A program made the translations under genes and the position numbers. From contig JAPXKJ010000002.1 of NCBI GenBank assembly GCA_033810155.1, positions 12,252-76,251 on the forward strand: 64,000 nt of DNA, given 5' to 3'. The stretch comes from Bacillota bacterium (GTDB lineage Bacteria > Bacillota > Sulfobacillia > Fermentithermobacillales > Fermentithermobacillaceae). The notes under the pieces are model-generated. The model searched no databases. It saw only the letters and a list, made by a program, of their open reading frames with translations, and had not been told where the DNA came from. Below are positions 43,428 to 61,375 of the stretch, in pieces (the first letter of the stretch is position 1; each line of letters begins with the position of its first letter).

Positions 43428-44522
43428 TTACAATGACTCCAGATACTCTCTAGATTTCTGGCTGATTTTTAGACTAGCATCTCCCGTTCCAAAGTAATAT
43501 TGAGGGTCCAAAATTATAGCAGGGCCCAATACATATTGAACCTTAGCTGCTGACAATATCCTCTCAACCTCAGTACCTGCAAGAACATTCGCACCACATT
43601 CAACTGTTTCCACCCATTCTGTCTCTTCTCTTAAGGTAACACAAGGCTTGCATAAGAAGAATGCCTCTTTCTGAACGCCTCCTGAATCGGTCATGATCAT
43701 CGCTGAATGATATTCTAAAACAAGCATATCTAAATAGCCAACTGGATCGATCACCTTTATATGCTCAGCACTTTCTAATTTGCCTAGCAGATTGTTTTTT
43801 TCTAGAGCCTGGCGCGTCCTCGGGTGTAAAGGCCAAACAACCTCATAGTCTAGCTGAAGCAAAGCGCTAACAATATTTCCCAAGCTGTTCGGGTTGTCTG
43901 TGTTCTCCGCACGATGGACGGTAACAAGGATATAGCTATCTCGTGTGATATCCAGATCTTCCAATATCGTAGACTTGCTCTTTGCTATCTGCATGTTCTC
44001 TGAGAATGCGTCATACATCACATCGCCGACCTGATATACGTTTTTGGTGATGCCTTCTTTAGCAAGATTGGCGACTGCAACATCTGTGGGACAAAATAAT
44101 AGATCCGATAGATGGTCTGTCAAGACACGGTTTATCTCTTCTGGCATGTTCTTGTTATAACTGCGTAACCCAGCTTCCACATGAAAAACCGGTATATGTA
44201 GTTTAGCTGCCGCTAGACCTCCAGCCAGAGTTGAATTAGTGTCCCCATAAACTAAAACAGCCTGCGGCAATTCCTTCATGAGAACGGATTCTATAGCTTC
44301 AAGCATGGCTCCTGTCTGCTTGCCATGAGTACCCCCACCCAGTCCCAAATTATAGTCAGGACGCGGGATATTCAAATCATCAAAGAAGGTTTTTGACATA
44401 TTGTAATCATAGTGCTGGCCTGTATGCACTAACACTTCTTTACACCATTTCCTCAGTTCTCTTGATACAGGAGCAGCTTTTATGAACTGAGGTCTAGCTC
44501 CTACTACTGTAACTATCTTCAA
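43428..44522 (-). CDS. UDP-N-acetylglucosamine (or UDP-GlcNAc3NAcA) 2-epimerase, non-hydrolysing (WecB/WbpI/FnlC family).
   Basis: N-terminus MKIVTVVGARPQFIKAAPV, plus HTGQHYD and the HVEAGLRS motif. 364 aa. Confidence 0.75.
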   Translation of the reverse strand: MKIVTVVGARPQFIKAAPVSRELRKWCKEVLVHTGQHYDYNMSKTFFDDLNIPRPDYNLGLGGGTHGKQTGAMLEAIESVLMKELPQAVLVYGDTNSTLAGGLAAAKLHIPVFHVEAGLRSYNKNMPEEINRVLTDHLSDLLFCPTDVAVANLAKEGITKNVYQVGDVMYDAFSENMQIAKSKSTILEDLDITRDSYILVTVHRAENTDNPNSLGNIVSALLQLDYEVVWPLHPRTRQALEKNNLLGKLESAEHIKVIDPVGYLDMLVLEYHSAMIMTDSGGVQKEAFFLCKPCVTLREETEWVETVECGANVLAGTEVERILSAAKVQYVLGPAIILDPQYYFGTGDASLKISQKSREYLESL

Positions 44523-44618
44523 GTTAACACCCCGCTCTTTTACGAAAAACCAGACTCCATCGGCTTATATATACAGACACCTTGCAAATCACCACTCTTT
44601 CCAACGTTTTTACGATGA

Positions 44619-45326
44619 TCAGTCGGGAGTCTCTTTCCACAACCACTGTACCCGATACGGCTGAAAGCCAAGGCGTTCTTTGAAGTATCTAAGCCCTTCT
44701 TTTGCTCCTAACAAGGTGTCATACATAAGCCACTCGGGTTGCCCATATTTGCTCTTCCGTTCTATGACCAAGCGCATTATTCCATCCACCAAAAGATACA
44801 TAATTCCGTTATCAAGGTATTCCCCATGCCCCAAAATCCTCGACATAACTGTAACTTCACCGCAACAACTAATATCAGCGTAAGCTACCAAAACACCCGT
44901 TGCATCAAGAACAGCCGGAATGGTCTCAACATCTTGCCAAGACATTTCAACTTGACGGCGGTCCATATATGACTGAGACATCGACCGTTCTTGCCTGACT
45001 TGCATAGATGAATTGACATCCATTATGTCATCAATGTAATCGAGCGGCTTCACAAACTGGAATACGTAACCTGCCCTGGTAGCACGTTTTCTATTGGTCC
45101 TAAAAGCCTGCATCTTTCGCCCGCTTTCGTAATCAGTAATATCGTCAGGTATACGAATCAATGCCACACCTAGTTCTTTTCTCGCAAAGATAGGGCACTT
45201 AGGATGTCTGGTAGTGAAATATTTAAAGGCTGCTTTGCTTTTACCATCGCCTGACATAGTAATACTAATGCGTGGCATGGTTCTAAGCGTTTTCACAATA
45301 TACCTTATCTGATTTCTACTAATCAT
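44619..45326 (-). CDS. Hypothetical protein in the polysaccharide cluster, possibly an acyltransferase-like fold.
   Basis: 235-aa ORF, co-directional with its neighbours. Confidence 0.35.
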   Translation of the reverse strand: MISRNQIRYIVKTLRTMPRISITMSGDGKSKAAFKYFTTRHPKCPIFARKELGVALIRIPDDITDYESGRKMQAFRTNRKRATRAGYVFQFVKPLDYIDDIMDVNSSMQVRQERSMSQSYMDRRQVEMSWQDVETIPAVLDATGVLVAYADISCCGEVTVMSRILGHGEYLDNGIMYLLVDGIMRLVIERKSKYGQPEWLMYDTLLGAKEGLRYFKERLGFQPYRVQWLWKETPD

Positions 45327-45380
45327 GCTCGAATACCGTTCCTTTCTCCACTAAAAGCGACATCATCACAACTAAGTTCC

Positions 45381-46199
45381 CTAGAGATTCCTGCCGGATA
45401 GCGGCAGCCGATATTTCAATCCTTCAACAACCCGATTGACATCTTCTCCGAAGCGCAAGACTATGTTCCTACGCCACCTAGAGGGATGGGTCAAAATATA
45501 TACTACGCTATCTCCCCTCTTTAGAACATCTTTTGGAGAAATAGGGTACCACCACATAGGATATAACCCATCTGATAGTCTAGCTACAACTGGCGCCATC
45601 AATTTGCTGTCGTACGCTTCAACTTCAATACCCAAACAATCACGCAAATCCTGCGATTGAAGTAAGTAGTGATTTGGAATCCCTACGGCACGATTAGCAA
45701 AGTCTCCGTGAGAAGCCACGCTTGCTAGAGGAAGACCTGCCATCTCTTTCAGCATTCTGTAGTTAACTGCAAACAAAGACTGAGCCTCTTTCACAATATC
45801 CGCCACTTCATCAGCACTGCTTATGCGATACCTTTTGATCAGCGTAGCCAATTCCTCGTAATGATAACTTGCTTCACTTCCTGATTGCTCTATTTGCTCC
45901 ATCAAATCAACATCTAATGTGCACAATCTGAAATAGAACGAAGATCGAGCACCAACTTGTTGTTCAATATCATGCATCATCTTTGCAGCGCCGCAGTCCA
46001 AATCTACATCGTGTCTGAGTATCAAGCACCTTCCCCCTGAAATATCCGATCCCGAATTGAGCGATCTCCAAAACGATATTATAGAGTGTGTCTCGTAACC
46101 ATGGTCAATAAATTCGCGGAGTAGATCTCTATAATCTTGCATTCTTGTCGGCGCCAAATAGTCCGAATATAGTCTGTACCATATGTTGTGAGTAGACAC
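45381..46199 (-). CDS. Hypothetical protein, possibly a polysaccharide deacetylase-like (WalW-type) enzyme.
   Basis: 272 aa with an LILRHDVDLD motif reminiscent of divergent polysaccharide deacetylases. Confidence 0.35.
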   Translation of the reverse strand: MSTHNIWYRLYSDYLAPTRMQDYRDLLREFIDHGYETHSIISFWRSLNSGSDISGGRCLILRHDVDLDCGAAKMMHDIEQQVGARSSFYFRLCTLDVDLMEQIEQSGSEASYHYEELATLIKRYRISSADEVADIVKEAQSLFAVNYRMLKEMAGLPLASVASHGDFANRAVGIPNHYLLQSQDLRDCLGIEVEAYDSKLMAPVVARLSDGLYPMWWYPISPKDVLKRGDSVVYILTHPSRWRRNIVLRFGEDVNRVVEGLKYRLPLSGRNL

Positions 46200-46355
46200 T
46201 TAGATCACTCTTTCTGCAAAGTGTTTCAAATAAAGGGCCTGCAAGTTATTCAGATGCCAATTCTACAAAACACCTCAAAACAGTACATGACGAATTCTTG
46301 TATAGCACGGCATACTTTCTTGCAGCCAGCGCACACAGGACCCATAAATCGAGAA

Positions 46356-47477
46356 TCACCGAGACAGCACTTCTCGGTATACCTCTATGTATTCAGCAGC
46401 TATTTTATCCCAATCAAACCTCTGGCTATAAGCAACACATCTTGTAGATATGGCATTATAGTCTGCCAAAATATCCTGTACTCTTGCTACAATTTCGTCA
46501 GGAGAATTGCAATCTACAGAATATCCAACTACTCCCTCGTCAAAATACCCGTCAAAACCCTGGCCTCGAGTATAAATGACCGGAAGACCTTGAGACAACG
46601 CTTCTGCATAGACAAGCCCAAACGTCTCTGTTCTTGATGGCATTACGAATATATCAGAAGCCCTATAATAGTCTATAAGTTTCTCCTTTGGACAACGCGG
46701 AATGTAGTTCACATATGGGTACTTGTTAAGCAACCGAAGATATCTCTCGTTTTCTATACCACCAACCACAGTGTATTGGACTTTGTAGCCGCTCTTTACC
46801 AATGAATCACATGCCTGCAATGTAGTTTGAACGTTCTTATTCCTATCAACTCTACCTGCGTAAATGATATTGACACAGCCCGGCAATGGTCCCTTTCTGT
46901 CATGGAAACGATTTTCTAACCAGAACCTATCTATCCCGTTAGGGATAACTACCGTCTTATCCATTATTTCTTTCCCAAACTTGGCAGGAATATAGTGCTC
47001 AAAGGTGTGATTCCGATATGATTCTGAAAGAAATACTATCTTCGAAGCGTTAAGCAATATATCCACACCAATCTTCCTAAGGTGCACCATTCTTCCAAAA
47101 AACAGATTTACATCGGTGTTTCTCACAGCAACAACATACGGAATGTTGTATTGTTGCTTTAACATGTAAGCTACGTACCCATTTGAAAAGAGAGAATGTG
47201 CATGCAGTAGGTCATACCTCCCAAAATCCAGCCTCCGCTTTGCGTCTTCCAAAACTTTTCGGTGCTTGACACGGAAGAAGAGTCTATCGTATTTCCTATA
47301 GCATGGTGCAAATATGACATTCAACGGACGTTCTGTAGGCAATCGGTAATCGTAATCAACGAAAACATATGCATCCTGAGTGACCCCTTGCTTGCTTAAC
47401 GCATCAAAGAGATTTTGATAAAGCGGTGTACCCACATAATAGGAACAAATATGAAGGATACTTGGATTGTTCATCAA
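46356..47477 (-). CDS. GT4-family glycosyltransferase.
   Basis: 373 aa with C-terminal GT-B motifs (PSRTETFGLVYAEALSQGLPVI). Confidence 0.65.
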   Translation of the reverse strand: MMNNPSILHICSYYVGTPLYQNLFDALSKQGVTQDAYVFVDYDYRLPTERPLNVIFAPCYRKYDRLFFRVKHRKVLEDAKRRLDFGRYDLLHAHSLFSNGYVAYMLKQQYNIPYVVAVRNTDVNLFFGRMVHLRKIGVDILLNASKIVFLSESYRNHTFEHYIPAKFGKEIMDKTVVIPNGIDRFWLENRFHDRKGPLPGCVNIIYAGRVDRNKNVQTTLQACDSLVKSGYKVQYTVVGGIENERYLRLLNKYPYVNYIPRCPKEKLIDYYRASDIFVMPSRTETFGLVYAEALSQGLPVIYTRGQGFDGYFDEGVVGYSVDCNSPDEIVARVQDILADYNAISTRCVAYSQRFDWDKIAAEYIEVYREVLSR

Positions 47478-47717
47478 ATGGCCAACCTCACTATCGCAAA
47501 TCGATTACTATTAACATATTAACATCGCCAAACAAAAGATCACCACCACCCCCCTACTACCTATCACAAACAACATTTAATGAAACTGAATATTATTTGG
47601 AAGATCCACCTGGTACAAACTTCTGCAAGGATGGCACTATTTGCCAATAGGGATTAGCGATGCTCTCGCGTTTCCAAGTAAGCCCACACCACCTGCCAAC
47701 ATACCTTGTAGATAATC

Positions 47718-48920
47718 CTACAGTAGTCTGTCACCCCATTTGAGTCCTCGAGTAACCAGGCCCAGAAAAACCCAAAAGTGAATCTCCGAGAAATAAGATC
47801 CGCTCACCATCAGTGGACAAAACCCAATACACAGCCACAGTGCAATAAAACTATACCCACGCATATCCTTCCAAAAGAAAACACGTGATATTAGGGCTAG
47901 TATTAACAAGATGGCAAAACTTCCAATCACCACCCCATAATCTGCTAATAGCTCAATAAACATGTTATGGCTGTAAGTGCCACCCAATACGAACCTATCT
48001 CCAGCTATACCTAATCCCATCAAAGGGCATTCCAATAGTTCAATTATCACGTTCTCATAAATTGCAGTCCTGGGCTCAATATGTAAACCAGGAGTCAGAG
48101 CTAACGCAATGTTCCTACTATAGATACCAATTCTAGCTAAGAAACTTTCAAGACTCGCTAGAAAACTAGGCATGAGTAGTACAATACTTGCCAGGGCCAT
48201 TATAACGAGCGAATAAGCTAGTACTTGGGTATTCGTTAGCTTTCGAGGCGGTCGTATTAATCTCATGGCAACAAAAACTGTAATACACATAACAGGCCCC
48301 CTAGAGCCGATTGCTACTATGAAGAACGTCGAAACCACTGATAGAACGAGACTCCAAAAACTCCCCTTATCAAAGAAATCGTTAAGGAATACGATAGCAG
48401 GCACAAGCATGTAATAAGAAAACGACATACTATAAGTACCAATCAACACCTTTCCAGAGAGGACAAACAGACCAAGTACTGACCCCAAGCAAAAAATGAC
48501 ATGGCTGGCTCTCAACAGTGTATCCTTAAATACTCTTATATCTATAATGCTTGAACTATATATGAACGCAGGTAGACACATTGCAAAAAAAGGAAAAATC
48601 AGGGCCTGTTGATAAACTCTATTACTTGGAAACATAAGATAGTGTAATAGAAACACAGAAGACCAGATAAGGTAGTTCCGCACGAATTTCATTTTGTTCC
48701 GCCTAAGAACCACTGGCAATGCATAGAAAAACACTACAGCTACTAGCAACTTCGACAGTAGCTGTATTTGACTAGCTCTATCCGTGTCGATTATGCCTAA
48801 TGATGCTAGAACCAAATACTGTAAAGTAAGAATAGTAACCGGCGATATAAGTGCCAGGCTAATTTTCCTATCGCCGGACTCTGCTGCACCCCATCCAACA
48901 TACTCACACTTTTCAAGCAC
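47718..48920 (-). CDS. Wzy-like O-antigen polymerase/ligase-family polytopic membrane protein.
   Basis: 400 aa with about 10 transmembrane helices, located inside the glycan cluster. Confidence 0.45.
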   Translation of the reverse strand: MLEKCEYVGWGAAESGDRKISLALISPVTILTLQYLVLASLGIIDTDRASQIQLLSKLLVAVVFFYALPVVLRRNKMKFVRNYLIWSSVFLLHYLMFPSNRVYQQALIFPFFAMCLPAFIYSSSIIDIRVFKDTLLRASHVIFCLGSVLGLFVLSGKVLIGTYSMSFSYYMLVPAIVFLNDFFDKGSFWSLVLSVVSTFFIVAIGSRGPVMCITVFVAMRLIRPPRKLTNTQVLAYSLVIMALASIVLLMPSFLASLESFLARIGIYSRNIALALTPGLHIEPRTAIYENVIIELLECPLMGLGIAGDRFVLGGTYSHNMFIELLADYGVVIGSFAILLILALISRVFFWKDMRGYSFIALWLCIGFCPLMVSGSYFSEIHFWVFLGLVTRGLKWGDRLL

Positions 48921-49261
48921 ACCTCAAAACCTCTCAATTGAATACCGCTTCAATTCCATATCATCCTGCTTACACTTAACACACTCACTCTATATAACAG
49001 AAACTAGGATGCTGATAACCTCAGAATCGCCATGTATGCAGGGATTCCCACTTGTCACAGGGCAATGACAATTCCCTGTCGTTTGATATTCCACATGAAC
49101 AACAATAACTTCCTCTGGAAGCGCTACCACAAACACATATTATTCTTGCCCCTGTCTTGAGTATCTCTCCTACCCACATTCGCACGAAATATCATACCTA
49201 GTTCGACCTCTAGACAGACAGTTCCTCTACAACGCTGGAATCGCCGCTCACGTATGATCCC

Positions 49262-50647
49262 TCATAGCCGAACTACCTTGCTCTCATCATATACTTTACC
49301 TTTCAGCGCATTCCTAGTATCGAGAATCAACTGTGCTTTGTCGACTACCCACTGATAATCAATGTTCGAGTGATCGGTAGTTATGATTACTATATCTGGG
49401 TTTCTTAGTGTTTCCTCAGTTAAAGGTACACTTTCCAGCACAATAGACTTACACTGATCCTGGTTTCCGGCAGCAACTGGAATAGCAATCTTCGGTATAT
49501 AAGGGTCGTGGTAAGAAACTTCCGCTCCTTCTTTAAGCAAAAGGCTTATTACTTTCAAAGCAGGCGACTCTCTATCATCTGGAATATCCTTTTTGTATGT
49601 CACCCCAAGAACCAGCACCTTTGCCCCTCTAAGAGATTTACGCTGGGTACCTAAAAGCCTGCCCGCCTTCTCCACCACAAAATATGGCATCCTAAGATTG
49701 ATCTCACCTGCAAGCTCAATAAAACGGGTTGCGAAGTCATACTCCCGAGCCTTCCAAGAAAGATAAAAAGGGTCTATAGGAATGCAGTGCCCACCTACCC
49801 CAGGTCCTGGATAAAAAGGCTGTATCCCAAATGGCTTAGTAAAAGCTGCATCAAGGACTTCCCAAACATCAAGTCCCATCCTGTCACACAAAAGCGCCAT
49901 TTCGTTAACAAGAGCAATATTAACAGCTCTGTAAGTGTTCTCAAAAACCTTTGCCAGCTCAGCAACAGCCGGTGATGACACTTTTACAACTTCCAAGATG
50001 GTCTGAGAATAGAAAGTAGACGCCACATCCAAACATGAAGGCGTAACCCCGCCTACCAATTTATTCGTGTTTTTCGTAGTGTATCTCGCGTTTCCCGGAT
50101 CTACCCTTTCAGGTGAAAAGGCTAAGAAGAAATCTTCACCCACCTTGAGCCCTGACTTGGCTAAGATCGGAAGTATGACTTCTTCAGTAGTACCGGGATA
50201 AGTGGTACTCTCCAGGCACACCAATTGTCCCCTGTGGAGATGTTTAGATATATCTTCAGAAACACCCACTATGTATTGAAGATCAGGTTCCCTATTTACG
50301 GTGAGAGGAGTAGGCACGCATATTATCACCACGTCACACTCATCTAACACGTCAAACTCAGTCGTAGCTTTAATCAGGCCTTTTTCAACTGCTTCTTTCA
50401 GTTCCTCAGATTTAACATCGAGTATGTAGTTTTCACCTCTATTGATCATGTCCACTCTTTGCGAATTCCGATCTATGCACCAAACTCTAAATCCCACTTT
50501 GGCTTTTTCAACAGCAAGAGGAAGACCTACATACCCGGCACCTACTACTGCAACCGCGGCCTTTCTTTCAACTATTTTCTTCTTAAGTTCTGAAACCACA
50601 TGATTTTCAGATATATTCTCCTGTCGATCATCTTTCTTCATCTCCAC
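49262..50647 (-). CDS. UDP-sugar dehydrogenase (UDP-GlcNAc 6-dehydrogenase, WbpA/TviB-like).
   Basis: Rossmann motif VAVVGAGYVGLPLAV. 461 aa. UDPG/MGDP dehydrogenase family. Confidence 0.7.
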   Translation of the reverse strand: MEMKKDDRQENISENHVVSELKKKIVERKAAVAVVGAGYVGLPLAVEKAKVGFRVWCIDRNSQRVDMINRGENYILDVKSEELKEAVEKGLIKATTEFDVLDECDVVIICVPTPLTVNREPDLQYIVGVSEDISKHLHRGQLVCLESTTYPGTTEEVILPILAKSGLKVGEDFFLAFSPERVDPGNARYTTKNTNKLVGGVTPSCLDVASTFYSQTILEVVKVSSPAVAELAKVFENTYRAVNIALVNEMALLCDRMGLDVWEVLDAAFTKPFGIQPFYPGPGVGGHCIPIDPFYLSWKAREYDFATRFIELAGEINLRMPYFVVEKAGRLLGTQRKSLRGAKVLVLGVTYKKDIPDDRESPALKVISLLLKEGAEVSYHDPYIPKIAIPVAAGNQDQCKSIVLESVPLTEETLRNPDIVIITTDHSNIDYQWVVDKAQLILDTRNALKGKVYDESKVVRL

Positions 50648-50717
50648 ACATACCCCTTCTTTTCAGCCAAAAGTAAACCGCCTGTATTCATAATTCATTC
50701 CTGTAAAAACTCTGTAT

Positions 50718-51839
50718 TTAAAAACCGCTAAAGGCAGAAATTGCATCTACAACATAATCTACCTGATCATCTTTCAGTTCAGGGAACATAGGCAGGGACA
50801 ATACAGTTTTAGATGCTTCCTCTGAATTAGGAAAGTCTCCTTCTTTGTATCCAAGGTCAGAAAACACCTTCTGAAGATGCAAGGGTAGAGGATAGTACAC
50901 AGTAGAAGATATACCTTTATCCTTAAGATAGGCCTGTAAGTCATCTCTATTCTTTGCCCTTATGGTGTATTGATGGTACACATGCCTATTCCCATCCATT
51001 TCCTTAGGAAGCACCAAGTTCCCAGATTTGACTGCATAAGTTCCAGATAGTCCGGAAGTGTATCGCTGGGCGATCCTACGTCTGCTTTCAGTCCATTCTT
51101 CAAGATACTTAAGTTTCACCGAAAGCACCTTTGCTTGTAGAGCATCCAGCCTGCTGTTTATGCCTAACATTTCATGATGGTATTTCTTCCTGCTGCCATG
51201 AACTCTCAAGATTCGGCACTTGTCTGCAATCTCATCATCACTGGTAACTATCATACCTGCATCTCCAAACGCTCCTAAGTTCTTCGTAGGAAAGAAGCTT
51301 AGGCATGCAACATCCCCAAGATTACACACCATCCGACCTCTGTAACTAGCCCCTATGGCCTGGGCCGCATCTTCAATTACCTTGAGCCCATGTTTTCTTG
51401 CAATGTCCATTACGGGATCCATGTCTGCCGACTGACCGTACAAATGCACAGGCAAAATCGCTTTAGTCCTAGATGTAATCTTCTTCTCGATGTCCAAAGG
51501 ATCGATGTTGAAGGTTTCAAGATCAATATCAGCAAAAACAGGCGTTGCACCAGCCCTTACAATTGATCCAGCAGTAGCGAAAAAAGTAAAAGGAGTGGTT
51601 ATGACTTCATCCCCCGGCCCTACACCACACGCTACTAGAGCGATATAAAGGGCATCGCTCCCATTACCCACGCCGATACCGTGCTTTACTTCGCAGAGTT
51701 GGGCAATTTGCGTTTCAAAAAAAGCCACAACATCGCCGAGGATAAACTGCCCGCTTAGCACAACATCCTCAATGGCAGCCATAAGTTCGTCTCTCAATCG
51801 CTGGTTCTGTTCTTTAAGATCAAACGACGGTACTTTCAT
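50718..51839 (-). CDS. DegT/DnrJ/EryC1/StrS-family PLP aminotransferase (WbpE-like).
   Basis: 373 aa with the family-typical GDEVITTPFTFFAT block. Confidence 0.7.
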   Translation of the reverse strand: MKVPSFDLKEQNQRLRDELMAAIEDVVLSGQFILGDVVAFFETQIAQLCEVKHGIGVGNGSDALYIALVACGVGPGDEVITTPFTFFATAGSIVRAGATPVFADIDLETFNIDPLDIEKKITSRTKAILPVHLYGQSADMDPVMDIARKHGLKVIEDAAQAIGASYRGRMVCNLGDVACLSFFPTKNLGAFGDAGMIVTSDDEIADKCRILRVHGSRKKYHHEMLGINSRLDALQAKVLSVKLKYLEEWTESRRRIAQRYTSGLSGTYAVKSGNLVLPKEMDGNRHVYHQYTIRAKNRDDLQAYLKDKGISSTVYYPLPLHLQKVFSDLGYKEGDFPNSEEASKTVLSLPMFPELKDDQVDYVVDAISAFSGF

Positions 51840-51938
51840 ATATGTACGCCACCTTTCATTTTCAACGCTTCCGAAAACACTTGTCTATTCACATGTGAAT
51901 CCTACCATAAATAACCCATTGAGCCAGGCAAAATACCC

Positions 51939-52655
51939 CTAATCTTCCTCTTTTGGATAAATAATCTGTTCTTGAGGAACATCCCCAACTACTCTCGCTG
52001 GAACCCCCATGACCTTGACATAAGGCGGAACGTCCTTGGTAACCACACTTCCAGCAGCAACCATGGCTTCTTGCCCTATGACCACTCCAGGAAGGATTAC
52101 TGCGTTGCCTCCAATTCTAGAGCCTTTTTTTGCAGTAACCCCCTTGGTCTTTTCGAACCTTTCCTGTGTTCTGCCCATAAAATTGTCATTAGTAGTGGTC
52201 ACCATTGGGGCAATAAACACATCCTCTTCAAGGATGGAATGAGCAGTGATGTAAGCACCTGTCTGAATTCTAGTTCTGTCTCCCACCTGGCAATCATTCT
52301 CAACGGTCGCCCCGTGCCCCACAATCACCGACTTCCCTATGTTACATCTTTCTCTCACCTGGGCACTGTCTGCTATGAAACAATCCTCACCCAATGAAGA
52401 ACCAGCATAGATCACGGCACCAACACCTACAAGGCATCTATCTCCAATAAATAGCGGGGGAAGATCACCTGAGGTCTTAAGAGTGCTCGACTTGGCCTTA
52501 GTAGGTTTTTGCCCTAAAACAGCGTTGGCCGATATTCTCACGTCGTTCCCAATTCTGGTATCCGCATATATCACAACATTTGGACCTATCTGAACCCCGT
52601 GACCCAAAGTAACGCCTTCTTCGATCAAGGCTGAGGGATGTATATCAGTTCCCAT
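51939..52655 (-). CDS. Left-handed beta-helix (hexapeptide-repeat) N-acetyltransferase (WbpD-like).
   Basis: 238 aa with repeated [LIV]G.N..I hexapeptides. Confidence 0.65.
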   Translation of the reverse strand: MGTDIHPSALIEEGVTLGHGVQIGPNVVIYADTRIGNDVRISANAVLGQKPTKAKSSTLKTSGDLPPLFIGDRCLVGVGAVIYAGSSLGEDCFIADSAQVRERCNIGKSVIVGHGATVENDCQVGDRTRIQTGAYITAHSILEEDVFIAPMVTTTNDNFMGRTQERFEKTKGVTAKKGSRIGGNAVILPGVVIGQEAMVAAGSVVTKDVPPYVKVMGVPARVVGDVPQEQIIYPKEED

Positions 52656-52703
52656 AAAAAACCTTCTTTCCGAAACAAGTGTCTAAGAACGGTTTTCCTC
52701 TGT

Positions 52704-53717
52704 TTAGTCTAAATCTAGCATCTCACTAATGCAACTTATAACCTTAACGGCTGATAGAACCACATCTGGGACTACAACGTCGTGAGAAATATTCGACAGA
52801 AATTCTGAAATGACCTGCTTATGTGCCCAGCTTGGTTCATGTCTCGGTGCATTTTCGCCCCATTTCGCAAGGAAAGCACCCTCATCATCACCTTCTACCC
52901 GCCAGGTTCTGAAAGAGTCGATCCTGCTTCCACCTAATACAGCAGTACCCTTATCCCCAAAAATGCTCACAGTCTGCTCAAGATTTTTCGGGTAGACGTT
53001 TGTAGTCGCCTCTATTAGCCCTAAGGATCCATCCTCCAATTCCATAGTTCCAAGGACCACATCCTCAGTTTCAATATCGTGAAACCTGGTTGCTGAAATG
53101 CCATGTGTCCTTCTTACAAGACTCCCCATAAACCACAAGAGAAGGTCTAGGGCATGCCAAGCTTGATTGAAGAGAATACCGCCATCCATGTTTCGAGTTT
53201 TTCTCCACGGGGCTTCATCATAGTACGCCTGAGACCTGTTCCACCTAAGAGTCACTACGCCATGGCTTAATTTCCCAAATCTGCCTTGAGAAATACAAGA
53301 CTTCAATATCTGACTAGTCTCATAATATCTGTTAGGGTGAACAGTACCCAAGCACCTATTCACGATCTCAGCTTTAGACACGAGTGCTTCCGCATCTTTT
53401 CGGTTAAGCGTGAGAGGTTTTTCAACTAAGACATGTTTTCCTGCACCTAATGCGTCTAATGCCATCTGAGTATGCATACCGCTAGGTGTTGCAACGATCA
53501 CTGCGTCAATCGATGAATCTCGGAGCATTTCCTTATAATCGTCGTACACCTTTTTTGACGCCGTTTTATTAAGATACTTACAAGCAAAGCGCTCCGCCTT
53601 GCTTATATCAACATCCGAAGCGGCGACAAGATTAGCGTTATCTAATTGTAAGAGTGCTTGGCCGTGTTTTTCTGCTATTGCTCCGCATCCTATGATGCCG
53701 AAGTTCACGTTTTTCAA
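52704..53717 (-). CDS. Gfo/Idh/MocA-family oxidoreductase (WbpB-like). The likely TTG start is at 53717 with a GGAGGG ribosome-binding site, rather than the ORF-track ATG at 53756.
   Basis: Rossmann motif FGIIGCGAIAEKH. The TTG-start N-terminus reads (M)KNVNFGIIGCG. Confidence 0.65.
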   Translation of the reverse strand: MKNVNFGIIGCGAIAEKHGQALLQLDNANLVAASDVDISKAERFACKYLNKTASKKVYDDYKEMLRDSSIDAVIVATPSGMHTQMALDALGAGKHVLVEKPLTLNRKDAEALVSKAEIVNRCLGTVHPNRYYETSQILKSCISQGRFGKLSHGVVTLRWNRSQAYYDEAPWRKTRNMDGGILFNQAWHALDLLLWFMGSLVRRTHGISATRFHDIETEDVVLGTMELEDGSLGLIEATTNVYPKNLEQTVSIFGDKGTAVLGGSRIDSFRTWRVEGDDEGAFLAKWGENAPRHEPSWAHKQVISEFLSNISHDVVVPDVVLSAVKVISCISEMLDLD

Positions 53718-53909
53718 AGATAACCCTCCAATAGAGAAAGCGATTCGATACTGCATTTATTCTAACAAGAAGAGCGTTTTCCTGCAGAAGATGTACCATC
53801 GAGTTAAGCTACCGAAAGGCGAAAATAAATGGGCATGCGTTTTGTGCTACTTTGTGCGATCGTATTGTGTACTGCCAGGTCTATAAGCCACAACTACGAC
53901 AATAAAGAC

Positions 53910-54875
53910 TCATTTCTTCCTTCTTGAATAGTACTTATCCAGCTCGTATAGGATCGCCTGGCTGTAGAACTTCTGTTTTTGCGAGTTTGGATTGTTCGAA
54001 TCAAGATAACGCACATAGGTGTACCTTTGATTGCTTTCGAAGCACTTCCTAATACTATGATATTGTTCGTTCACTTTGAAGTCCACGTACCTATCTTTAC
54101 ATTGTTTGGTCAATTCCTTGTAATTCCAGGGATATCTTCTGCGCATCTCTTCATCAGATAATCCAATCTTGACAGCATCAGGGGCATTGCTCAATCGCAC
54201 CGCCGGTGCACTTGAACTGCAAGAACGTACAAATCGGAGTTCAATGCCTACGGCTATCGAATAGGGCGCAGTCTCATCTTCATACCCCGATTTGAGACCC
54301 TCAAGGTATTGTAAGAATTTCTCTTCGTCTTTGCTTATCTTCACTCTCGTCAGAGAACGTTTTGGGTCATCAAATGAAAGCGGAATGGGGTATATATAGA
54401 AACCAGAAAGGTCACGTTGAAACCAGTCCCACACAATGTTAACGAAGTTATTGATACACGCAACACCAAATTCCTGAGCCTGCTCAACCAGTACAGAATC
54501 ATGGTGGTAAAAATGCACGGCGCCGTCACGCAGGGCTGCAAGTGCTTCAATGTTCCGTTCTATGGCTCCATCCAGTGTTTTTTGTTCCACCATAGTTCGC
54601 GCCAACCACTCTAAACTGTGAGTTTTTGGTGTGCCGCTTCGCGTTCGAACATATCTGACTCCTTTTTTAGCCTCACTTCGTTGGATATAAAGACTATTCA
54701 GCTGATTACCGTGGTCTGCAAGCCACTTGGCCTTAAGCAACAACTCCCAAGCGTTAATCGCAAGGATCGTGAAAGATTCCACACGATACGGTAGGTTAGG
54801 TAGATTATACACACCAATAGCGGCAACCATTGCGTTTATTGCCCGATCAACAAGCTCTTTTGATCGTGCCCTCAT
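53910..54875 (-). CDS. HEPN-like domain protein (candidate RNase / abortive-infection effector).
   Basis: 321 aa. A canonical R[NHQD]xxxH motif (ALRDGAVHF) sits about 120 aa from the N-terminus, after an N-terminal helix (AINAMVAAIGVYNLPNLPYRVESFTILAINAWELLLKAKWL) typical of HEPN/Abi families. The gene lies directly between the RT gene and the glycan cluster. Confidence 0.45.
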   Translation of the reverse strand: MRARSKELVDRAINAMVAAIGVYNLPNLPYRVESFTILAINAWELLLKAKWLADHGNQLNSLYIQRSEAKKGVRYVRTRSGTPKTHSLEWLARTMVEQKTLDGAIERNIEALAALRDGAVHFYHHDSVLVEQAQEFGVACINNFVNIVWDWFQRDLSGFYIYPIPLSFDDPKRSLTRVKISKDEEKFLQYLEGLKSGYEDETAPYSIAVGIELRFVRSCSSSAPAVRLSNAPDAVKIGLSDEEMRRRYPWNYKELTKQCKDRYVDFKVNEQYHSIRKCFESNQRYTYVRYLDSNNPNSQKQKFYSQAILYELDKYYSRRKK

Positions 54876-55603: not shown

Positions 55604-58600
55604 TCAAGTGCCCAGTTCTACTCTCTCATATCTGTCTCGCTCATGCCTCACCTTCGGAGGCGGCGTCTTAAAATCCTTCAGTCTCTTACGCACGTCATCT
55701 GTTTCCTCTTTGCCCCTTACTTTCAACAACTTCTCCTTCCAATCCTTCTCCTTATCCATCAATTTGTACTCATACTGCACTTCCCTTGCAAGTCTAAGAT
55801 CTTTAACAGGAACGCTAACAGGGATAGCAAGTCCCTTCTGCGAACCACGGACCCTGAAAATCTCCTTCCGATACTCATGCTTAGGAGTCCAAACTGTTGT
55901 TCCGCCGTACATCCCGTGATTTACTGTAATCGCATTGGCATATAACTCATAACCCTTAGCCCAAGTAACTTGCTCGTAAAGGTCAATATCCTGATTAAAT
56001 GCAAGTATAAAAAGGTGATCTAAAGAACCCTTAAGATCCCCCCACTTCCCTGAAGCAAGAACATCCGCACAGATTGTAACCACAAAATTACCCCACCTAG
56101 GATGGAAAAAACACTTCCATGCATTCCCAGAAGCAAAACGCCAATCTGTATCAGGGAAAACATCCTTTAACGCCCTCAAAAGCCCAACCTCAGAAACTGC
56201 AGGAACACATTTGCGTATGGAAAACTGATACACCTCCGTAGGCAGATCAAATTTATAGCCCTTACCATGAGAAGAACTATTCTTATGCGTCTCCCTTGTT
56301 TCCGAACCAGGCATTATCAAAACCGCTTCATTGACCAAACACCTAAGCCCTACCTTACGAACATCACGAACTACTGGCACCGCCCTAGGAAGCTCATAAG
56401 GAAGCAATCCGCACAAGATCGCAATGCCGCTCTGCATGGAAAACCGCCTCAGATCCCTAATGCGCCCCCTATCCACATACCACTCAGGGAACACGATCAT
56501 ATCAGGATAGGGCCTGCTACCTCGATCTCGCCCGTCACCCACAGCTACCCTAGCCTCGCTGTAGGCTTGCTGCAGACTTGCAGCCATTTCCTCCCATACT
56601 TTTTCCATAGATTCCCTGCTTACAGAAAAGAACGGACGATCTCGAGAAGGAAGCCACTTGGAATAATCGGGTATCTCAACGCCTTGAATGAGCCTTAAGT
56701 TAAACTCCTCAGCACAATATGAACTGCTATCGTCATGCAAATTCCCATCAGGAGGTGACATCAAATCCCAACCACCGTTAATATGGAATTCAACACACCT
56801 TATCCATGGATCTTTTAGTAACTCTTTGCACTGATCCTCAGTGGCAGTTATCATCCTCTTACTAACGTCGCTCTCACTTATGATACCAAAACCCTTTTCT
56901 AACTCGTGCATCAGATAATAAGGAAGCATGAGATTTGCTCTAACATCTTTACGATCTGATAAGGGTAGGATCCAAGGGTGAAACTCAAACATTTGGTCTA
57001 GCAATCTTTCAGAACCCTCAAGCAACCATAGAAGAAGAGCTCCTAACTGGGAATCAGGCGTTCTACCTTCATTTAGATAATGTAAACAGATGAACAAAGG
57101 ATGAGGTGCGGGATGACCCAAACCCAATGGGATAACTTCTGTTTTCAACTTAGATCTGCTAGATAAACCTTCTCCGTCCCCTTGTTGATCATCGCCTAAT
57201 AAAAATGACCCCTGAAACACCCTTTCATTGCTATTTACCAACTCATTCCTCCTAAAGTCCACCAAAAGTCTAAAAGAATCATCATCGAGGCAAACTGTAG
57301 AAGGAGCAACCACATTTCCTGCCTTCGCCGCACTTCGCGCACTAGACCATACTTGCCATGCTAAAGGCCACTGCAAGCCTAAAGATGGTACCTGAGAAGG
57401 CCTAGGAGGTCTTTCGGTACAAACTCCTTCTTCACCATCTAGATTGTAAAAGGCATAGTAAAGGGATTTTTCAAACGCACCGGCTCCGTCGCCATCTTTT
57501 AACCCTGTAAAAATGGAGAACCAGTCTTTAAACAAGCTAGTAGGAACGTATATATCGTGTGCCATAAGAAGGCGTCTCAAAGAAGCGTAGTCTTGCAGTC
57601 GAATAAAGCATTTCCACAAGTAGGTCAACCTATCATCTACATATCGTGCCTTAAACGGCCCCGTCACCACAGGATTATCCTTTGAATAAAGCGAATCCCA
57701 AAGAGACACCCGAGCCAATGACGCCCAGTTCGGATCGCAAGTCCCAGGCAAAACCTTAGCCGCAATCTCCCGCTTAGTAATAGCGATCTCATTTTCGTCA
57801 GGTGTGTACCAATTGCCAAAGTAACGCGTGAGCCATAACGAGCTTAGCCCAGAATCTGCGTTATTCCCCGAAGCAACGGGAAAACTACCTTGTCCCTCAT
57901 ATGACGCGGTTCGCCCGAGTAATTCGCGTATTCGCCCTTGGACTTCAAAGTCATGCGAAAGTATCATAGAAATCGCGTAATTTCGCACATCCTCCGGTCC
58001 TAGTGAAGATCTAAATGCTTGAGCACAAGAAGAACCTAGCGAATCCAAAACATCTTCTGCAAAGTCCAAAGCAGTATAGCTCACGCTTTCAGCCCAGAAA
58101 GGTCTATTCCCATCGGGCAGATCCATTATCTCTCTGTGAATTTCATTAAGATTTTCGGCAGATAAGACTGTCAAACAACCATCGATCAGCGCTTCTTGCT
58201 CCCACCACCAAAGAAACGGTTCTTTGGACCACTTCCAAGTCCAATCGCCATACAAAACGCTAGCAAATCTGCTAATATCGCCAAACTCCTTAAGCAATAG
58301 CTTTGCATCTTCGGCGCCGAAAAAGGCCAGCCAACCGCCTAAAAGAGCCTCATCATCACCATCGGCTATTTTCTGCAAGGCATTTATGCAATAGGACCAC
58401 TCTCGCCAAAACTGGGTTCGGTGAAAACTGGTTCTTTCCCGACACCTATGAATTTGAGCCATTCTCAAGCGATCTGCGTACCTACATTTATGTTTAAGGT
58501 CAGGGTAGTCTCTGAACGTTCGTGGATCCCATTCCCATTTGGTGTTTCCAGCCGAAAGGTAGCCTTCCATGTCGACCTCTTCATCCTTAGAAACCCATTG

Positions 58601-60754
58601 TATAATCGGCAATATCTGCTCAGTCAACCACTTAAAACCTGCCCGTTCTGGGACTTCCCCGCCTTGTACCTCAAAATACGCAGACGCCCTCAGAGCTACA
58701 ATTATAATTGCCCTCCAAAGTTTGAACCGCCAAGGATGTCTACGCAAAGCGGTCTCGGCTATCAACATAATCTTCTTTACATAAGTGGTAGCGCTAATTA
58801 TCTCCCCTTCCCTAAGAACCGACCCCTTGGGCCAAGAAGCTCTTGCCAACCTGTTTACAGCAAAAGACAGACGAGCATCGGCTCCTACTTCAAAATCTTC
58901 GATTTCAAGAGTAGCCAACTCCATCAGTTCTTCAAGCCTCTCGATGCCGTAAGCGCCAAATCGCTCTCCAAAAGTCTCTTCACTTATCCCGCTCATCTGC
59001 CTAACAATCTCAGTCGTAAACAACTCTAGATTCTTCCTGGTAAGGTAATCGTCGGGGAGTAAGTATTTCCGCAGCGGATTATTGTCTCCTCCGTATGGAG
59101 GAGGCACTTCTTGCAAAGGAATCTCTTTTCCAGTCGTCTTAATTTCGTGGTTCGGAGTACTTTCATTCCTGTTTTTCTCGCTAAGCTTACTGGATTTAGT
59201 CCGCTTGGTCATATAATTTCTCACACCCTGCGGTTTCATCTTGGAAAGGTTAAGCTGCAAGTCATCTCCTGTATACTCTTTCAGCGATTCCTTAAGTTCT
59301 AAGATAGCTTGTTCCAAAACCTCTGGATCTTTCGCCAAAATAACCACATCGTCTGCAAATCGAAGGTAAATCATAGGACCTGCGGATGTCTTGTCGATTC
59401 TATCTGATAATTCAACCATACGCTCATCTACAGGTGTCAACACAACATTGAGCAAGAATCCTGATATGGCGAGACCCGTTGGCAAACCATCATTTCTTTT
59501 TACAATTTCATTTGAACTAGAGCCTTGTAAAGAAGGCTTCACTTCCAAAGGAGCAAAACCATGGGGACCAATCCACAACCGATCTTCGTTTCCTAATAAT
59601 TCCGAACACTTGTCCGGATTCGCTTCATTATGAGCGTCAGCCTCGTCCCTACAGGCCTTTTCGCCAGAAGATGAACAACTGTCGCAGGGCGCCCATGTGT
59701 TTACGCTATCTTCCCAATCAGAAGGTACGTTCCAAGGCAAGTACGTAACAGAATCAAGTAGTGACATAAGGTGTTCTGCAAGTCTTATCCTTGCGCGTTC
59801 ATTTTGTTCCTGTCTAAGATACTCCCAAGGGTGTTGAATACTGGAACTATGTCCTGAACCCCAATAGGACTCAATAGAATCCTGAAAGCCTTTTGATCTT
59901 GGACGCTTTAAGGACGGAAATTTAGGTCGCCCAAAACCTGTGTATTTCATCTCTTGGGAATCTGTCTTACCTTCTATCTTGTTTCGTACTAACGAAGTCA
60001 TTGTAACTCGGAGTATATTTCTATTCACAGAAGGAAAAGCCATTTTAAGGTCCAGTTTTGCATATGTCAAATCTATCGGTTCTTGGTTCTTCTTTTCCCG
60101 TAGATAATTCAAATAGGGAAGCAGATCGGGATCTTCCTCAAAAATCTCCTCATATTGGAAGGAACTCGAGGATTTTTCGCTGCCAATTACGTAGTAGTTC
60201 GTAAGCCACTGCAACACCCGTCTGAACAGACCATAGCCAGCCGCAAAGCCAGTATAAACTTGCTTGTGATTAAGAGAAAAAGGCGCTTGGAACCAGCGTT
60301 TATTTTTTTCGGATAGTGTTTCGTCCTCTGATTCGGATGATTTTTCGTTTTTCGGTTCCTTTCGAACCCTGGGCCTGTACAGACGATTGCCCATGGAAAC
60401 ATTCGGCATCCTAGCCTCAAGAAAGGGACCTAGTAGGACCATAAATACGGTAAATGCCACCTGATCACGCACTGATGGCATTACAAAGTGTCGAGTATAT
60501 CCGCCTTTTTTAGGATAGGGAATTTCAGGAAAAGGGCCAGGCGAATACGTACCTTGTGCTAACTCATAAGAAAGCTCGCCTAAGTGACGCCAAGGATCCG
60601 CCTTCCATTCCAGAATCTCAGCAGGGTCGTGCCACTCCCCACCAGAGTACCAATTCAATACCTTGTTCCATGCAGCGCGCATCACCCACGGGCTAAAGAG
60701 CACATTAGCTTCTTCTTCTGAATAGGGAAATTTGATATCTGCGATGGAAACCAC
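55604..60754 (-). CDS. Reverse transcriptase fused to a C-terminal carbon-nitrogen hydrolase (nitrilase) domain, DRT1/UG1-like defence-associated RT. 1,716 aa.
   Basis: RT motifs are present: motif 1 (RHFVMPSVRDQVAFTVFMVLLGPFLE), motif A (YAKLDLKMAFPSVNR), motif B' (LPTGLAISGFLLNVVLTPVD), YxDD (YLRFADDVVIL) and motif 6 (LQLNLSKMKP). There is an insertion of about 180 aa between motifs A and B'. The C-terminal roughly 300 aa carries a nitrilase-type E-K-C pattern (MIVFPEW ... ETHK ... VVTICADVL). No retron msr/msd, group II intron or DGR features were seen. The start is GTG with a weak ribosome-binding site. Confidence 0.7.
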   Translation of the reverse strand: MVSIADIKFPYSEEEANVLFSPWVMRAAWNKVLNWYSGGEWHDPAEILEWKADPWRHLGELSYELAQGTYSPGPFPEIPYPKKGGYTRHFVMPSVRDQVAFTVFMVLLGPFLEARMPNVSMGNRLYRPRVRKEPKNEKSSESEDETLSEKNKRWFQAPFSLNHKQVYTGFAAGYGLFRRVLQWLTNYYVIGSEKSSSSFQYEEIFEEDPDLLPYLNYLREKKNQEPIDLTYAKLDLKMAFPSVNRNILRVTMTSLVRNKIEGKTDSQEMKYTGFGRPKFPSLKRPRSKGFQDSIESYWGSGHSSSIQHPWEYLRQEQNERARIRLAEHLMSLLDSVTYLPWNVPSDWEDSVNTWAPCDSCSSSGEKACRDEADAHNEANPDKCSELLGNEDRLWIGPHGFAPLEVKPSLQGSSSNEIVKRNDGLPTGLAISGFLLNVVLTPVDERMVELSDRIDKTSAGPMIYLRFADDVVILAKDPEVLEQAILELKESLKEYTGDDLQLNLSKMKPQGVRNYMTKRTKSSKLSEKNRNESTPNHEIKTTGKEIPLQEVPPPYGGDNNPLRKYLLPDDYLTRKNLELFTTEIVRQMSGISEETFGERFGAYGIERLEELMELATLEIEDFEVGADARLSFAVNRLARASWPKGSVLREGEIISATTYVKKIMLIAETALRRHPWRFKLWRAIIIVALRASAYFEVQGGEVPERAGFKWLTEQILPIIQWVSKDEEVDMEGYLSAGNTKWEWDPRTFRDYPDLKHKCRYADRLRMAQIHRCRERTSFHRTQFWREWSYCINALQKIADGDDEALLGGWLAFFGAEDAKLLLKEFGDISRFASVLYGDWTWKWSKEPFLWWWEQEALIDGCLTVLSAENLNEIHREIMDLPDGNRPFWAESVSYTALDFAEDVLDSLGSSCAQAFRSSLGPEDVRNYAISMILSHDFEVQGRIRELLGRTASYEGQGSFPVASGNNADSGLSSLWLTRYFGNWYTPDENEIAITKREIAAKVLPGTCDPNWASLARVSLWDSLYSKDNPVVTGPFKARYVDDRLTYLWKCFIRLQDYASLRRLLMAHDIYVPTSLFKDWFSIFTGLKDGDGAGAFEKSLYYAFYNLDGEEGVCTERPPRPSQVPSLGLQWPLAWQVWSSARSAAKAGNVVAPSTVCLDDDSFRLLVDFRRNELVNSNERVFQGSFLLGDDQQGDGEGLSSRSKLKTEVIPLGLGHPAPHPLFICLHYLNEGRTPDSQLGALLLWLLEGSERLLDQMFEFHPWILPLSDRKDVRANLMLPYYLMHELEKGFGIISESDVSKRMITATEDQCKELLKDPWIRCVEFHINGGWDLMSPPDGNLHDDSSSYCAEEFNLRLIQGVEIPDYSKWLPSRDRPFFSVSRESMEKVWEEMAASLQQAYSEARVAVGDGRDRGSRPYPDMIVFPEWYVDRGRIRDLRRFSMQSGIAILCGLLPYELPRAVPVVRDVRKVGLRCLVNEAVLIMPGSETRETHKNSSSHGKGYKFDLPTEVYQFSIRKCVPAVSEVGLLRALKDVFPDTDWRFASGNAWKCFFHPRWGNFVVTICADVLASGKWGDLKGSLDHLFILAFNQDIDLYEQVTWAKGYELYANAITVNHGMYGGTTVWTPKHEYRKEIFRVRGSQKGLAIPVSVPVKDLRLAREVQYEYKLMDKEKDWKEKLLKVRGKEETDDVRKRLKDFKTPPPKVRHERDRYERVELGT

Positions 60755-60974
60755 CTTCTACATATTATTAGGTCCAATATTCTATGCACCTGGTATATAT
60801 CCTTTAGTGTATCCTTTAGGAACAAGGTCCCTGCGCTTTTCACATTTAAACGCCATACATGGGGTATCCGATACACGAAGAGAAGGTTAAGATAGTCTTG
60901 CACCGATATTTTGAGTAACGATAGCCCATCTTTTACCCTAGCTTTCCTTCATTCCAGGGATGCCTATTTATCAA

Positions 60975-61375
60975 TCTGGCTCACTCCATAGACCACTTAC
61001 TTCCTCTTCGCCCTCACTACATGAAAAAGTGGCTCATCTGATAGACCACTTTCCTCAGTCTCACCATCATCAGCTCTAAAAAGTGGCTCACTGGTTGAGC
61101 CACTTACGTTTAGAATCAAATAAACATGGATAAAACTGGCTCACCAGGTGAGCCAGTTTTGACCTTCTTATCTGAGTTTCCCTAGAAAGTGGCTCAGTAC
61201 ATATACCACTTTGCTTCTCGGAAGGATGTTATTAATGGAAAAGTGGCCTACTGTGTAGGCCACTTTCCTTGTTCCTCCCTTGCCAACCTACCAAAGTGGC
61301 TCACCACATATGCCACTTTCTTTCCCTCTACCCTAAGAATCTGCCAACAGTGGCCAATGGGATAGGCCACTTCTT
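60975..61375. repeat. Cluster of eight REP-like palindromes immediately upstream of the RT-nitrilase gene. It includes perfect palindromes with compensatory arm changes.
   Basis: AAAACTGGCTCACC-A-GGTGAGCCAGTTTT (61132-61160) and AAAGTGGCCTAC-TGT-GTAGGCCACTTT (about 61240-61267), compared with the family consensus AAGTGGCTCA...TGAGCCACTT. Confidence 0.8.

Follow-up and report, generated by a model that had tools for sequence, protein, structure and literature searches.

The 64,000-nt window analysed here, a stretch of a contig from a Bacillota bacterium to which coordinates refer throughout, carries on its reverse strand an open reading frame (ORF) of 1716 aa that is a genuine fusion of a reverse transcriptase (RT) with a nitrilase-type enzyme. 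Such a fusion had been proposed at 55604–60754 in an earlier note made from the sequence alone, and the ORF as well as all the peptide strings quoted in that note were found there, in the order given. The GTG start codon immediately follows an in-frame TAG, and the true start may lie up to ~18 codons downstream. The ORF is flanked by genes for a helix-turn-helix (HTH) protein and a DUF3644 protein, the latter followed by a surface-polysaccharide cluster (Table 1).

Domain organization of the RT–nitrilase protein

The RT motifs that had been read from the sequence (1, A, B', YxDD and motif 6) could all be located, in that order, at aa 88–508, with motif 1 at aa 88–113, motif A at aa 234–245, motif B' at aa 424–443, YLRFADDVVI at aa 463–472 and LQLNLSKMKP at aa 499–508. 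Pfam RVT_1 (PF00078) matches aa 414–507 above its gathering score (E = 1.8e-9) and likewise detects 17 of 17 relatives, and the RT core is matched in addition by many RT models of PADLOC and NCBIfam; a match to HEPN_LA2681 (E = 0.089) in the Pfam scan of the window protein was discounted as noise. Residue conservation was assessed in an alignment of 17 sequences (25–54% identity) and then in one of 88 sequences. Invariant positions of the RT comprise D235 in motif A, P425-T426-G427 in motif B', F466-x-D468-D469 in motif C, K505 and P508, and the three aspartates D235, D468 and D469 are unchanged across the 88 relatives. An AlphaFold2 model of aa 1–720, built with the 88 relatives as input (predicted local distance difference test score of 84.1, predicted template modelling score of 0.86), retrieved from the PDB with Foldseek, as its top matches, group II intron RTs, G2L4, the RT of a diversity-generating retroelement (DGR), DRT9, DRT2, UG15/DRT4 and AbiP2.

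The 180-aa insertion that the earlier note had placed inside the RT core is real, but it is largely a trait of the whole lineage and not peculiar to the window protein: it consists of a lineage-wide expansion of the spacer between motifs A and B' and of a subclade-specific, disordered, Cys-rich addition. The A-to-B' spacing of 189 aa is the longest seen. Two reference proteins each of DRT1 and of UG5-large have a spacing of ~67 aa; among 87 relatives it has a median of 98 aa (88–178 aa) and in the 20 closest clusters it amounts to 121–178 aa. In the model, aa 257–348 of the spacer are folded, with confident helices at aa 309–334 that bear the conserved residues P309, R322 and L333. The predicted-disordered segment that follows (aa 349–417) holds a cluster of cysteines (C357, C360, C368 and C383), and the CxxC..C pattern is found in the 3–4 closest relatives only. 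A further disordered stretch, rich in Ser, Thr, Tyr and Lys, follows the RT region at aa 532–565, in a position analogous to that of the DRT1 loop which carries the priming residue Ser402. A search for a conserved Ser, Thr or Tyr inside this loop of the family found none, and the priming residue is therefore not predictable; T581 and S588, just past the loop, are invariant, yet lie within a folded helix.

Between the two enzymes, the ~750 aa of Trp-rich helical sequence noticed earlier proved to be a mostly helical region (aa 566–1317) with a Trp content of 3.8%, in which a fold match suggests a kinase-like fold that lacks conserved kinase catalytic motifs. An exhaustive HMMER search with aa 566–1350 against 1.84 billion representatives returned 93 proteins at E ≤ 1e-3, and since all of them have the same architecture or are fragments thereof, the middle region is, by sequence, exclusive to the family.

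The C-terminal domain, confidently modelled and backed by fold matches as well as profiles, combines the alpha-beta-beta-alpha sandwich fold with the Glu-Lys-Glu-Cys tetrad that together mark the nitrilase superfamily. E1424 (FPEW), N1475-E1476-A1477, K1515 (IRK), E1522 and C1562 (ICAD) are invariant in the 17-sequence alignment and conserved in at least 90% of the 88 sequences, and the active site, as judged from this alignment, is the canonical E-K-E-C tetrad, with the K-x6-E spacing of DRT1. Two of the catalytic residues assigned in the earlier note, the Glu of IVFPEW (aa 1420–1425) and the Cys of VVTICADVL (aa 1558–1566), thus hold; the Lys of 'ETHK' has to give way to K1515, since it sits in a variable loop (aa ~1483–1510) that is missing in most relatives. 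Pfam CN_hydrolase (PF00795), the profile that had been suggested for verification, matches neither the window protein nor any of the 17 relatives, even at E ≤ 0.1; this negative is a false one and was discarded as counter-evidence because the DRT-specific profiles and the structure unambiguously reveal a nitrilase, and it fits a published remark that places the hydrolases of class 3 in a clade of their own, separate from other nitrilases. The protein ends in a conserved tail that reads FK(T/A)PPPGF in the family, FKTPPP in the window protein, VKTQPAGF in DRT1 and FKPLPEGF or FKPVPDGF in UG5-large proteins.

Table 1. Features of the RT–nitrilase gene and of its surroundings; positions preceded by L012, L027 or L032 are those of the respective related loci.
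Feature	Position	Strand	Basis or remark
Whole RT–nitrilase ORF	55604..60754	-	1716 aa, GTG start
RT region, aa 1–531 (N-terminal extension, fingers and palm, helix after motif 7)	59162..60754	-	Profiles, model, fold matches
Expanded motif A–B' spacer, aa 246–423	59486..60019	-	Alignment, model
Subclade-specific predicted-disordered segment, aa 349–417	59504..59710	-	Alignment, model
Low-confidence flexible loop after RT, aa 532–565, S/T/Y/K-rich	59060..59161	-	Model
Trp-rich, mostly helical middle region, aa 566–1317	56804..59059	-	Models, sequence search
Module-boundary linker, aa 1066–1096 (split point in relatives)	57467..57559	-	Split-locus comparison
Nitrilase-superfamily domain and long C-terminal helix, aa 1318–1677	55724..56803	-	DRT-specific profiles, model, fold matches
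Tetrad residue E1424	56483-56485	-	Alignment
Tetrad residue K1515	56210-56212	-	Alignment
Tetrad residue E1522	56189-56191	-	Alignment
Tetrad residue C1562	56069-56071	-	Alignment
C-terminal tail motif FKTPPP (K1696, P1698)	55655..55672	-	Alignment
DUF3644 protein, 321 aa, PDC-S19	53910-54875	-	PADLOC, end-to-end, E = 2.6e-111
HTH protein, 240 aa	61385-62107	-	Weak N-terminal MarR/IclR-type winged helix, E ~1e-4
Surface-polysaccharide cluster	42100-53756	-	Directly downstream of the two defence-type genes
BREX-embedded split pair	L012 7059-19289; L027 1474-17456; L032 3254-16454		PADLOC

Relatives, fused and split forms

A search of 5.8 billion clustered proteins retrieved 93 relatives, nearly all of 1380–1690 aa and unnamed; the best of them shares 50% identity with the window protein along its full length. 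With the first ORF of a split form of the gene (see below) as the query, a second search yielded 278 relatives, and the matches listed were family members only, with no UG6 outgroup among them. Compared with DRT1 (1229 aa) and UG5-large proteins (~1000 aa), the protein is unusually large, as had been noted; among the fused forms of its own lineage, which measure ~1380–1690 aa, it is not. When one genome per species was considered in GTDB, the gene was present in 37 of ~185,000 species, all represented by uncultured metagenome-assembled genomes (MAGs) and spanning Bacillota, Gammaproteobacteria, Acidobacteriota, Spirochaetia, Planctomycetota, Gemmatimonadota and others, a rare and patchy distribution brought about by horizontal spread. 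A search of plasmids recovered no close relative and only seven weak nitrilase matches, which served as DRT1 and UG5 references. Public records label the relatives as 'hypothetical' or 'RNA-directed DNA polymerase', and the fragments in the 90% cluster of the window protein as 'RNA-directed DNA polymerase, partial [Bacillota bacterium]'.

In eight loci from several phyla (L010, L012, L013, L014, L017, L027, L032 and L033), the gene consists of two ORFs that meet near locus coordinate 12600. ORF1, of ~875–933 aa, encodes the RT and the kinase-like region and ends right after a conserved 'EY-RARR-LLG', and ORF2, of ~565–660 aa, starts right before 'TLHRLLWG' and encodes the remainder with the nitrilase; the junction corresponds to a linker in the window protein (Table 1). 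Stop and start codons overlap (ATGA, GTGGCCGTAA) or lie 1–3 nt apart, with GGAGG-like (Shine–Dalgarno-like) sequences upstream. The split forms are a case of translational coupling at a fixed module boundary; the coupled overlaps, the Shine–Dalgarno-like sequences and the single boundary led us to reject long-read assembly errors and programmed frameshifts for the eight loci. Split ORF1s are numerous and interleave with fused forms of ~1470 aa at similar identity, the two-gene arrangement being no less frequent than the single-gene one.

Separately, in two Bacillota genomes the relatives closest to the window protein (L003 9998-15063 and L004 9983-14725) are broken at non-canonical places, by a frameshift (~aa 611) or an in-frame stop (~aa 953); these breaks may mark pseudogenes or reflect errors in MAG assembly.

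Affiliation, genomic context and alternative readings

At 1716 aa, with an RT joined to a C–N hydrolase across a helical region of family-exclusive sequence, the window protein has the make-up of class 3 UG/Abi proteins (>1000 aa). To place it among them, four reference RT–nitrilases from plasmids (two DRT1, a UG5-large protein of E. coli and DRT11 of S. meliloti) were scored against PADLOC as a calibration. Both DRT1 references reach 1317–1890 bits end-to-end on Drt1a; on RT_UG5-nitrilase, the E. coli UG5-large protein and the experimentally validated S. meliloti DRT11 reach 1015–1034 bits, also end-to-end. For the window protein, the scores are 73 bits on Drt1a (best stretch aa 1573–1653 only), 89 bits on RT_UG5-nitrilase (C-terminal profile positions 678–887 only), 60 bits on RT_UG6 (RT core only) and 102 bits on RTasNitrilase, its best nitrilase model, and six relatives score likewise on these models; on RT_UG29 it obtains 32 bits (RT palm). 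Since such scores are no higher than the cross-matches between named groups (UG5-large proteins obtain 82–89 bits on Drt1a), the window protein lies outside UG1/DRT1, UG5-large and UG6 as modelled. None of the 42 UG/Abi groups, in their PADLOC v2 implementation, covers the lineage, and the searchable literature yielded no later name for it and no phage-protection experiment on any of its members.

By group-specific RT profiles, UG6 is the named group to which the RT comes closest. It has been described as a class 3 RT of ~925 aa whose C-terminal domain is kinase-like but devoid of catalytic residues, accompanied by a separate nitrilase of cluster 285 and a DnaG-type primase of cluster 192 (Mestre et al., 2022; PMC9226505). 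The lineage could accordingly be regarded as a deep branch of UG6 in which the RT and the kinase-like domain became fused or coupled to the cluster 285 nitrilase and the primase was lost. Among the group-specific RT models, RT_UG6 indeed fits the window protein and its relatives best (Drt1a and UG5 being matched as well), RTasNitrilase is the best nitrilase model, the split ORF1 of ~880 aa approaches the 925 positions of the UG6 profile, the middle region appears to have a kinase-like fold such as that described for UG6, and the top NCBIfam match, group_II_RT_mat (65 bits, with the cutoff at 300), is according to myRT characteristic of UG6 RTs. Yet the match to RT_UG6, of 60 bits for the window protein and 78 bits for the split ORF1 of L014, extends over ~216 of the 925 positions (~133–348) and leaves the C-terminal domain of UG6 unmatched, does not exceed what distinct UG groups score on each other, and comes with no primase or other conserved neighbour. 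Because of the limited extent of the profile match and the absence of a primase, in a comparison made through the RT_UG6 profile and the published description, we treat the lineage as related to UG6 yet distinct, and consider outright membership unlikely. The picture that emerges is of a rare, unnamed lineage related to UG6 in its RT and its apparently kinase-like middle region and to DRT1 and UG5 in its nitrilase and C-terminal tail.

A role in defence is suggested by the surroundings of the relatives, which lie in defence islands. When 185 ORFs from the flanks of 33 loci were scanned together with PADLOC, strong matches were obtained to BrxA, BrxC, PglX, PglZ, BrxHI, ShosA/ShosT, DarG, DruE, DrmD, HmaA, IetS, QatA, PD-T4-6, a type IIG restriction-modification protein and several PDC candidate families, among them components of BREX, Shosta, DarG, Druantia, DISARM, IetS, QatA and PD-T4-6 systems, with E-values from 1e-46 to 0. 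Across phyla, in MAGs with one Spirochaetia locus (L012) and two Longimicrobiales loci (L027 and L032), a type 1 BREX system harbours the split pair between its pglX and pglZ genes; the BREX components of L027 score 1970 bits (BrxC), 1303 bits (PglX) and 1009 bits (PglZ). The interval between pglX and pglZ is a known slot for embedded accessory defence genes.

No neighbour family is widely shared: all-against-all clustering of the ORFs from 37 loci and the window revealed no family common to more than five of the 37 loci. Next to the window gene, the DUF3644 protein, a member of the PADLOC candidate defence family PDC-S19, is encoded 729 nt downstream and is unlinked to the RT–nitrilase in every relative; the HTH protein, the C-terminal half of which we take to resemble DUF559/Vsr-like nuclease folds ('VAWEFNGRQHYE…ERDLMKAQL…GVTLITI'), belongs to a 90% cluster with 109 members in Bacillota MAGs, as against 27 in that of the RT–nitrilase. 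Both were rejected as partners because they are conserved neither across the 37 loci nor beside the two closest relatives, which are flanked instead by a SocA/Panacea-domain gene or by mobile-element-like genes. The 'new neighbours' to which the earlier note had drawn attention are thus incidental, and size and insertion are mostly traits of the lineage.

A cellular role other than defence, for instance one tied to the adjacent polysaccharide cluster or to a mobile element, was also considered. In the window, the gene borders a cluster that encodes two GT4 glycosyltransferases, a UDP-GlcNAc 2-epimerase, a Wzy-like polymerase, a UDP-sugar dehydrogenase, a DegT aminotransferase, a hexapeptide acetyltransferase and a GFO/IDH/MocA oxidoreductase, and the predictions of a defence role for UG6 were inconclusive in Mestre et al. 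The polysaccharide genes, however, are not conserved beside the relatives, whereas defence genes recur in their flanks, and the patchy occurrence in so few species of many phyla is typical of horizontally moving defence genes, so that we regard a non-defence role as very improbable.

Nor does the protein appear to be a bona fide DRT1/UG1 member enlarged by insertions, as its affiliation in the earlier note would have it. DRT1 is the closest solved structure by sequence (E = 1.4e-11 with the single sequence), and a profile of the family matches it (9YFD) at E = 4.9e-22 through collinear RT and nitrilase segments, the next RT following at 44 bits; the order of domains is the same and the tail motifs are similar. 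These likenesses, together with the defence islands, uphold the assignment to the defence-associated class 3 type. Membership of DRT1/UG1 itself fails: the score on Drt1a stems from ~80 residues, when the two genuine DRT1 references match end-to-end, hhalign against the DRT1 pair aligns the nitrilase alone (97% probability), the middle region is unrelated in sequence, and no DRT1b-like small membrane gene lies downstream. We accordingly give this possibility hardly any credence.

The gap of 630 nt that precedes the gene contains eight hairpin-forming palindromes (60972–61372), 53–54 nt apart, with the consensus AAAGTGGCTCA-N5-TGAGCCACTTT and arms AGTGG-N13-CCACT. Arrays of the same type occur beside unrelated housekeeping genes at 6161–6501 and 25698–26947; the three arrays, of 7 (6161–6501), ~24 (25698–26947) and 8 units with a period of about five helical turns, are intergenic and lie, respectively, beside the genes for threonine synthase and a flavodiiron protein, beside a lipoprotein-like gene and that for a CPBP protease, and beside the RT–nitrilase and HTH genes. 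Some copies keep their pairing via changes on both arms, and the largest array appears, from its recurring unit sequences, to be built of five-unit blocks (~267 nt); none of the three was picked up by Tandem Repeats Finder. No such array lies upstream of the relatives, none being present in the 37 related loci. As it recurs at two unrelated loci and is absent upstream of the relatives, the array was rejected as a non-coding RNA (ncRNA) or operator of the system and is treated as a dispersed host repeat outside it; such arrays could be repetitive extragenic palindromic or bacterial interspersed mosaic elements (REP/BIME-like), operator arrays or hairpin-forming transcripts. A template-dependent RT that uses these palindromes as a local ncRNA, in the manner of the class 2 systems DRT2, DRT9 and DRT10, is the least probable of all the readings despite the stable hairpins that the array immediately 5' of the gene would form, given this distribution and the fact that no ncRNA is known for class 3 systems and that synthesis by DRT1 and DRT5 is template-free.

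Rfam at gathering thresholds detected nothing within or near the RT–nitrilase gene, no tRNAs were found, and a repeat scan revealed no DGR-type template and variable repeats beside the RT; with group_II_RT_mat below its cutoff, these scans bear out the previously noted lack of msr/msd, group II intron domains and DGR repeats. Elsewhere in the window, a single marginal Rfam match, to CRISPR-DR2, was recorded at 22422–22451 (+; 38 bits against a gathering threshold of 37).

Proposed mechanism and comparison with known systems

The view that RT–nitrilases are poorly understood, voiced in the earlier note, has been overtaken by the structure and dissection of DRT1 in 2026. DRT1, DRT5S and DRT5L polymerize deoxynucleoside triphosphates without a template into DNA that is primed on, and covalently bound to, the protein; DRT1 uses for this Ser402, a residue of the disordered loop after the RT that lacks conservation in the remaining class 3 RTs, and the DNA adducts lead to the assembly of tetramers and filaments via the nitrilase domains (Neville et al., PMC13275509). 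The last 19 residues of DRT1, with the essential lid residues K1219 and A1223, swap between protomers and shut the active site of the neighbour; activation requires a phage helicase and results in abortive infection (PMC13275509).

The window protein is, in our view, probably a single-polypeptide class 3 UG/Abi anti-phage defence protein, composed of RT, helical region and nitrilase, with a DRT1-like mechanism. This scheme is proposed because the protein keeps every DRT1 element visible in sequence or model, namely, invariant polymerase aspartates, a Ser/Thr/Tyr-rich loop predicted to be disordered, an intact tetrad and the conserved tail. The RT would synthesize short untemplated single-stranded DNA, primed on a Ser, Thr or Tyr of its own flexible loop, and the covalent DNA adducts would give rise to nitrilase-mediated oligomers, in which the tail (FK-T-PPP) of one protomer would close the active site of its neighbour and render the enzyme dormant. 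A phage-encoded activity would release the nitrilase (E1424-K1515-E1522-C1562), which might then hydrolyse an essential amide- or nitrile-bearing metabolite and thereby abort the infection. The inventory of parts is what the data show, and protein priming, oligomerization, trigger, substrate and abortive outcome are what we infer by homology with DRT1. The modelled protein departs from DRT1 in its apparently kinase-like middle domain and its Cys-rich insert, which could serve in sensing or regulation.

A bolder proposal, which we put forward as possible but doubtful, is that the lineage represents a distinct DRT type, in which a pseudokinase-like sensor, joined in the Bacillota subclade by a disordered Cys-rich insert within the RT fingers/palm that may bind zinc, would replace the regulatory logic of DRT1. 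If so, the priming site, the trigger or the oligomeric state would differ from those of DRT1, and repeated fusion and fission at one boundary would make the RT–kinase-like and nitrilase modules a separable sensor/effector pair. RT–nitrilases have become mechanistically tractable only recently, the DRT1 structure and DRT11 both dating from 2026, and a lineage that retains both catalytic centres and the C-terminal lid motif around a wholly different, apparently kinase-like middle region of ~750 aa, in natural fused and two-gene forms, offers a comparator for asking whether protein priming and tail-mediated autoinhibition are general, what the middle region senses and whether the nitrilase module can act in trans. 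The lineage is under-annotated, as the profile sets of PADLOC v2 and Pfam fail to recognize it as a system.

Among the known systems, DRT1 (PDB 9YFD, cryo-electron microscopy; Neville et al., 2026, PMC13275509) resembles the window protein as a single polypeptide in which the RT is followed by a helical middle region and the nitrilase, with YxDD-type aspartates, an E-K-E-C tetrad, a disordered post-RT loop, a Lys/Pro-containing tail, no ncRNA and a defence-island context. It differs in its length (1229 versus 1716 aa) and in the A-to-B' spacer (~67 versus 189 aa), and sequence similarity does not reach beyond the nitrilase and the palm of the RT; the middle regions are not detectably homologous, Ser402 cannot be aligned, and the window locus has no DRT1b-like membrane gene. 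With UG6, the lineage shares what appears to be a kinase-like fold after the RT, again without kinase catalytic motifs, a nitrilase of the 'RT-associated' type and, in many relatives, a separate, coupled downstream nitrilase gene behind an ORF1 of ~880 aa, whereas only the RT core of the UG6 profile is matched, a primase was detected in none of the loci, the nitrilase of the window protein is fused and the nitrilase-bearing module of the lineage measures 565–660 aa, compared with a stand-alone nitrilase profile of 397 positions.

In the UG5-large protein DRT11 (S. meliloti pSymA, ~1005 aa), the RT and the fused nitrilase suffice for defence (Sanchez-Nieto et al., 2026; PMC13436386). Its nitrilase belongs to the same UG1/UG5/CL249/CL285 radiation, its tail (FKPVPDGF) is similar and no ncRNA was detected, but it is ~700 aa shorter and has a small DUF4136-type connector in place of the ~750-aa helical, apparently kinase-like region. 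UG29, a very large class 3 RT of ~2500 aa with a C-terminal hydrolase, indicates that size alone is not unprecedented, although it possesses an N-terminal DnaG primase, which the window protein does not, and a nitrilase from a separate clade. The coexistence of fused and split forms parallels that of UG5-large and UG5-small. Taken together, these comparisons show that the window protein extends the known RT–nitrilase kind, formed by the relatives of DRT1, UG5 and UG6, rather than revealing a new one.

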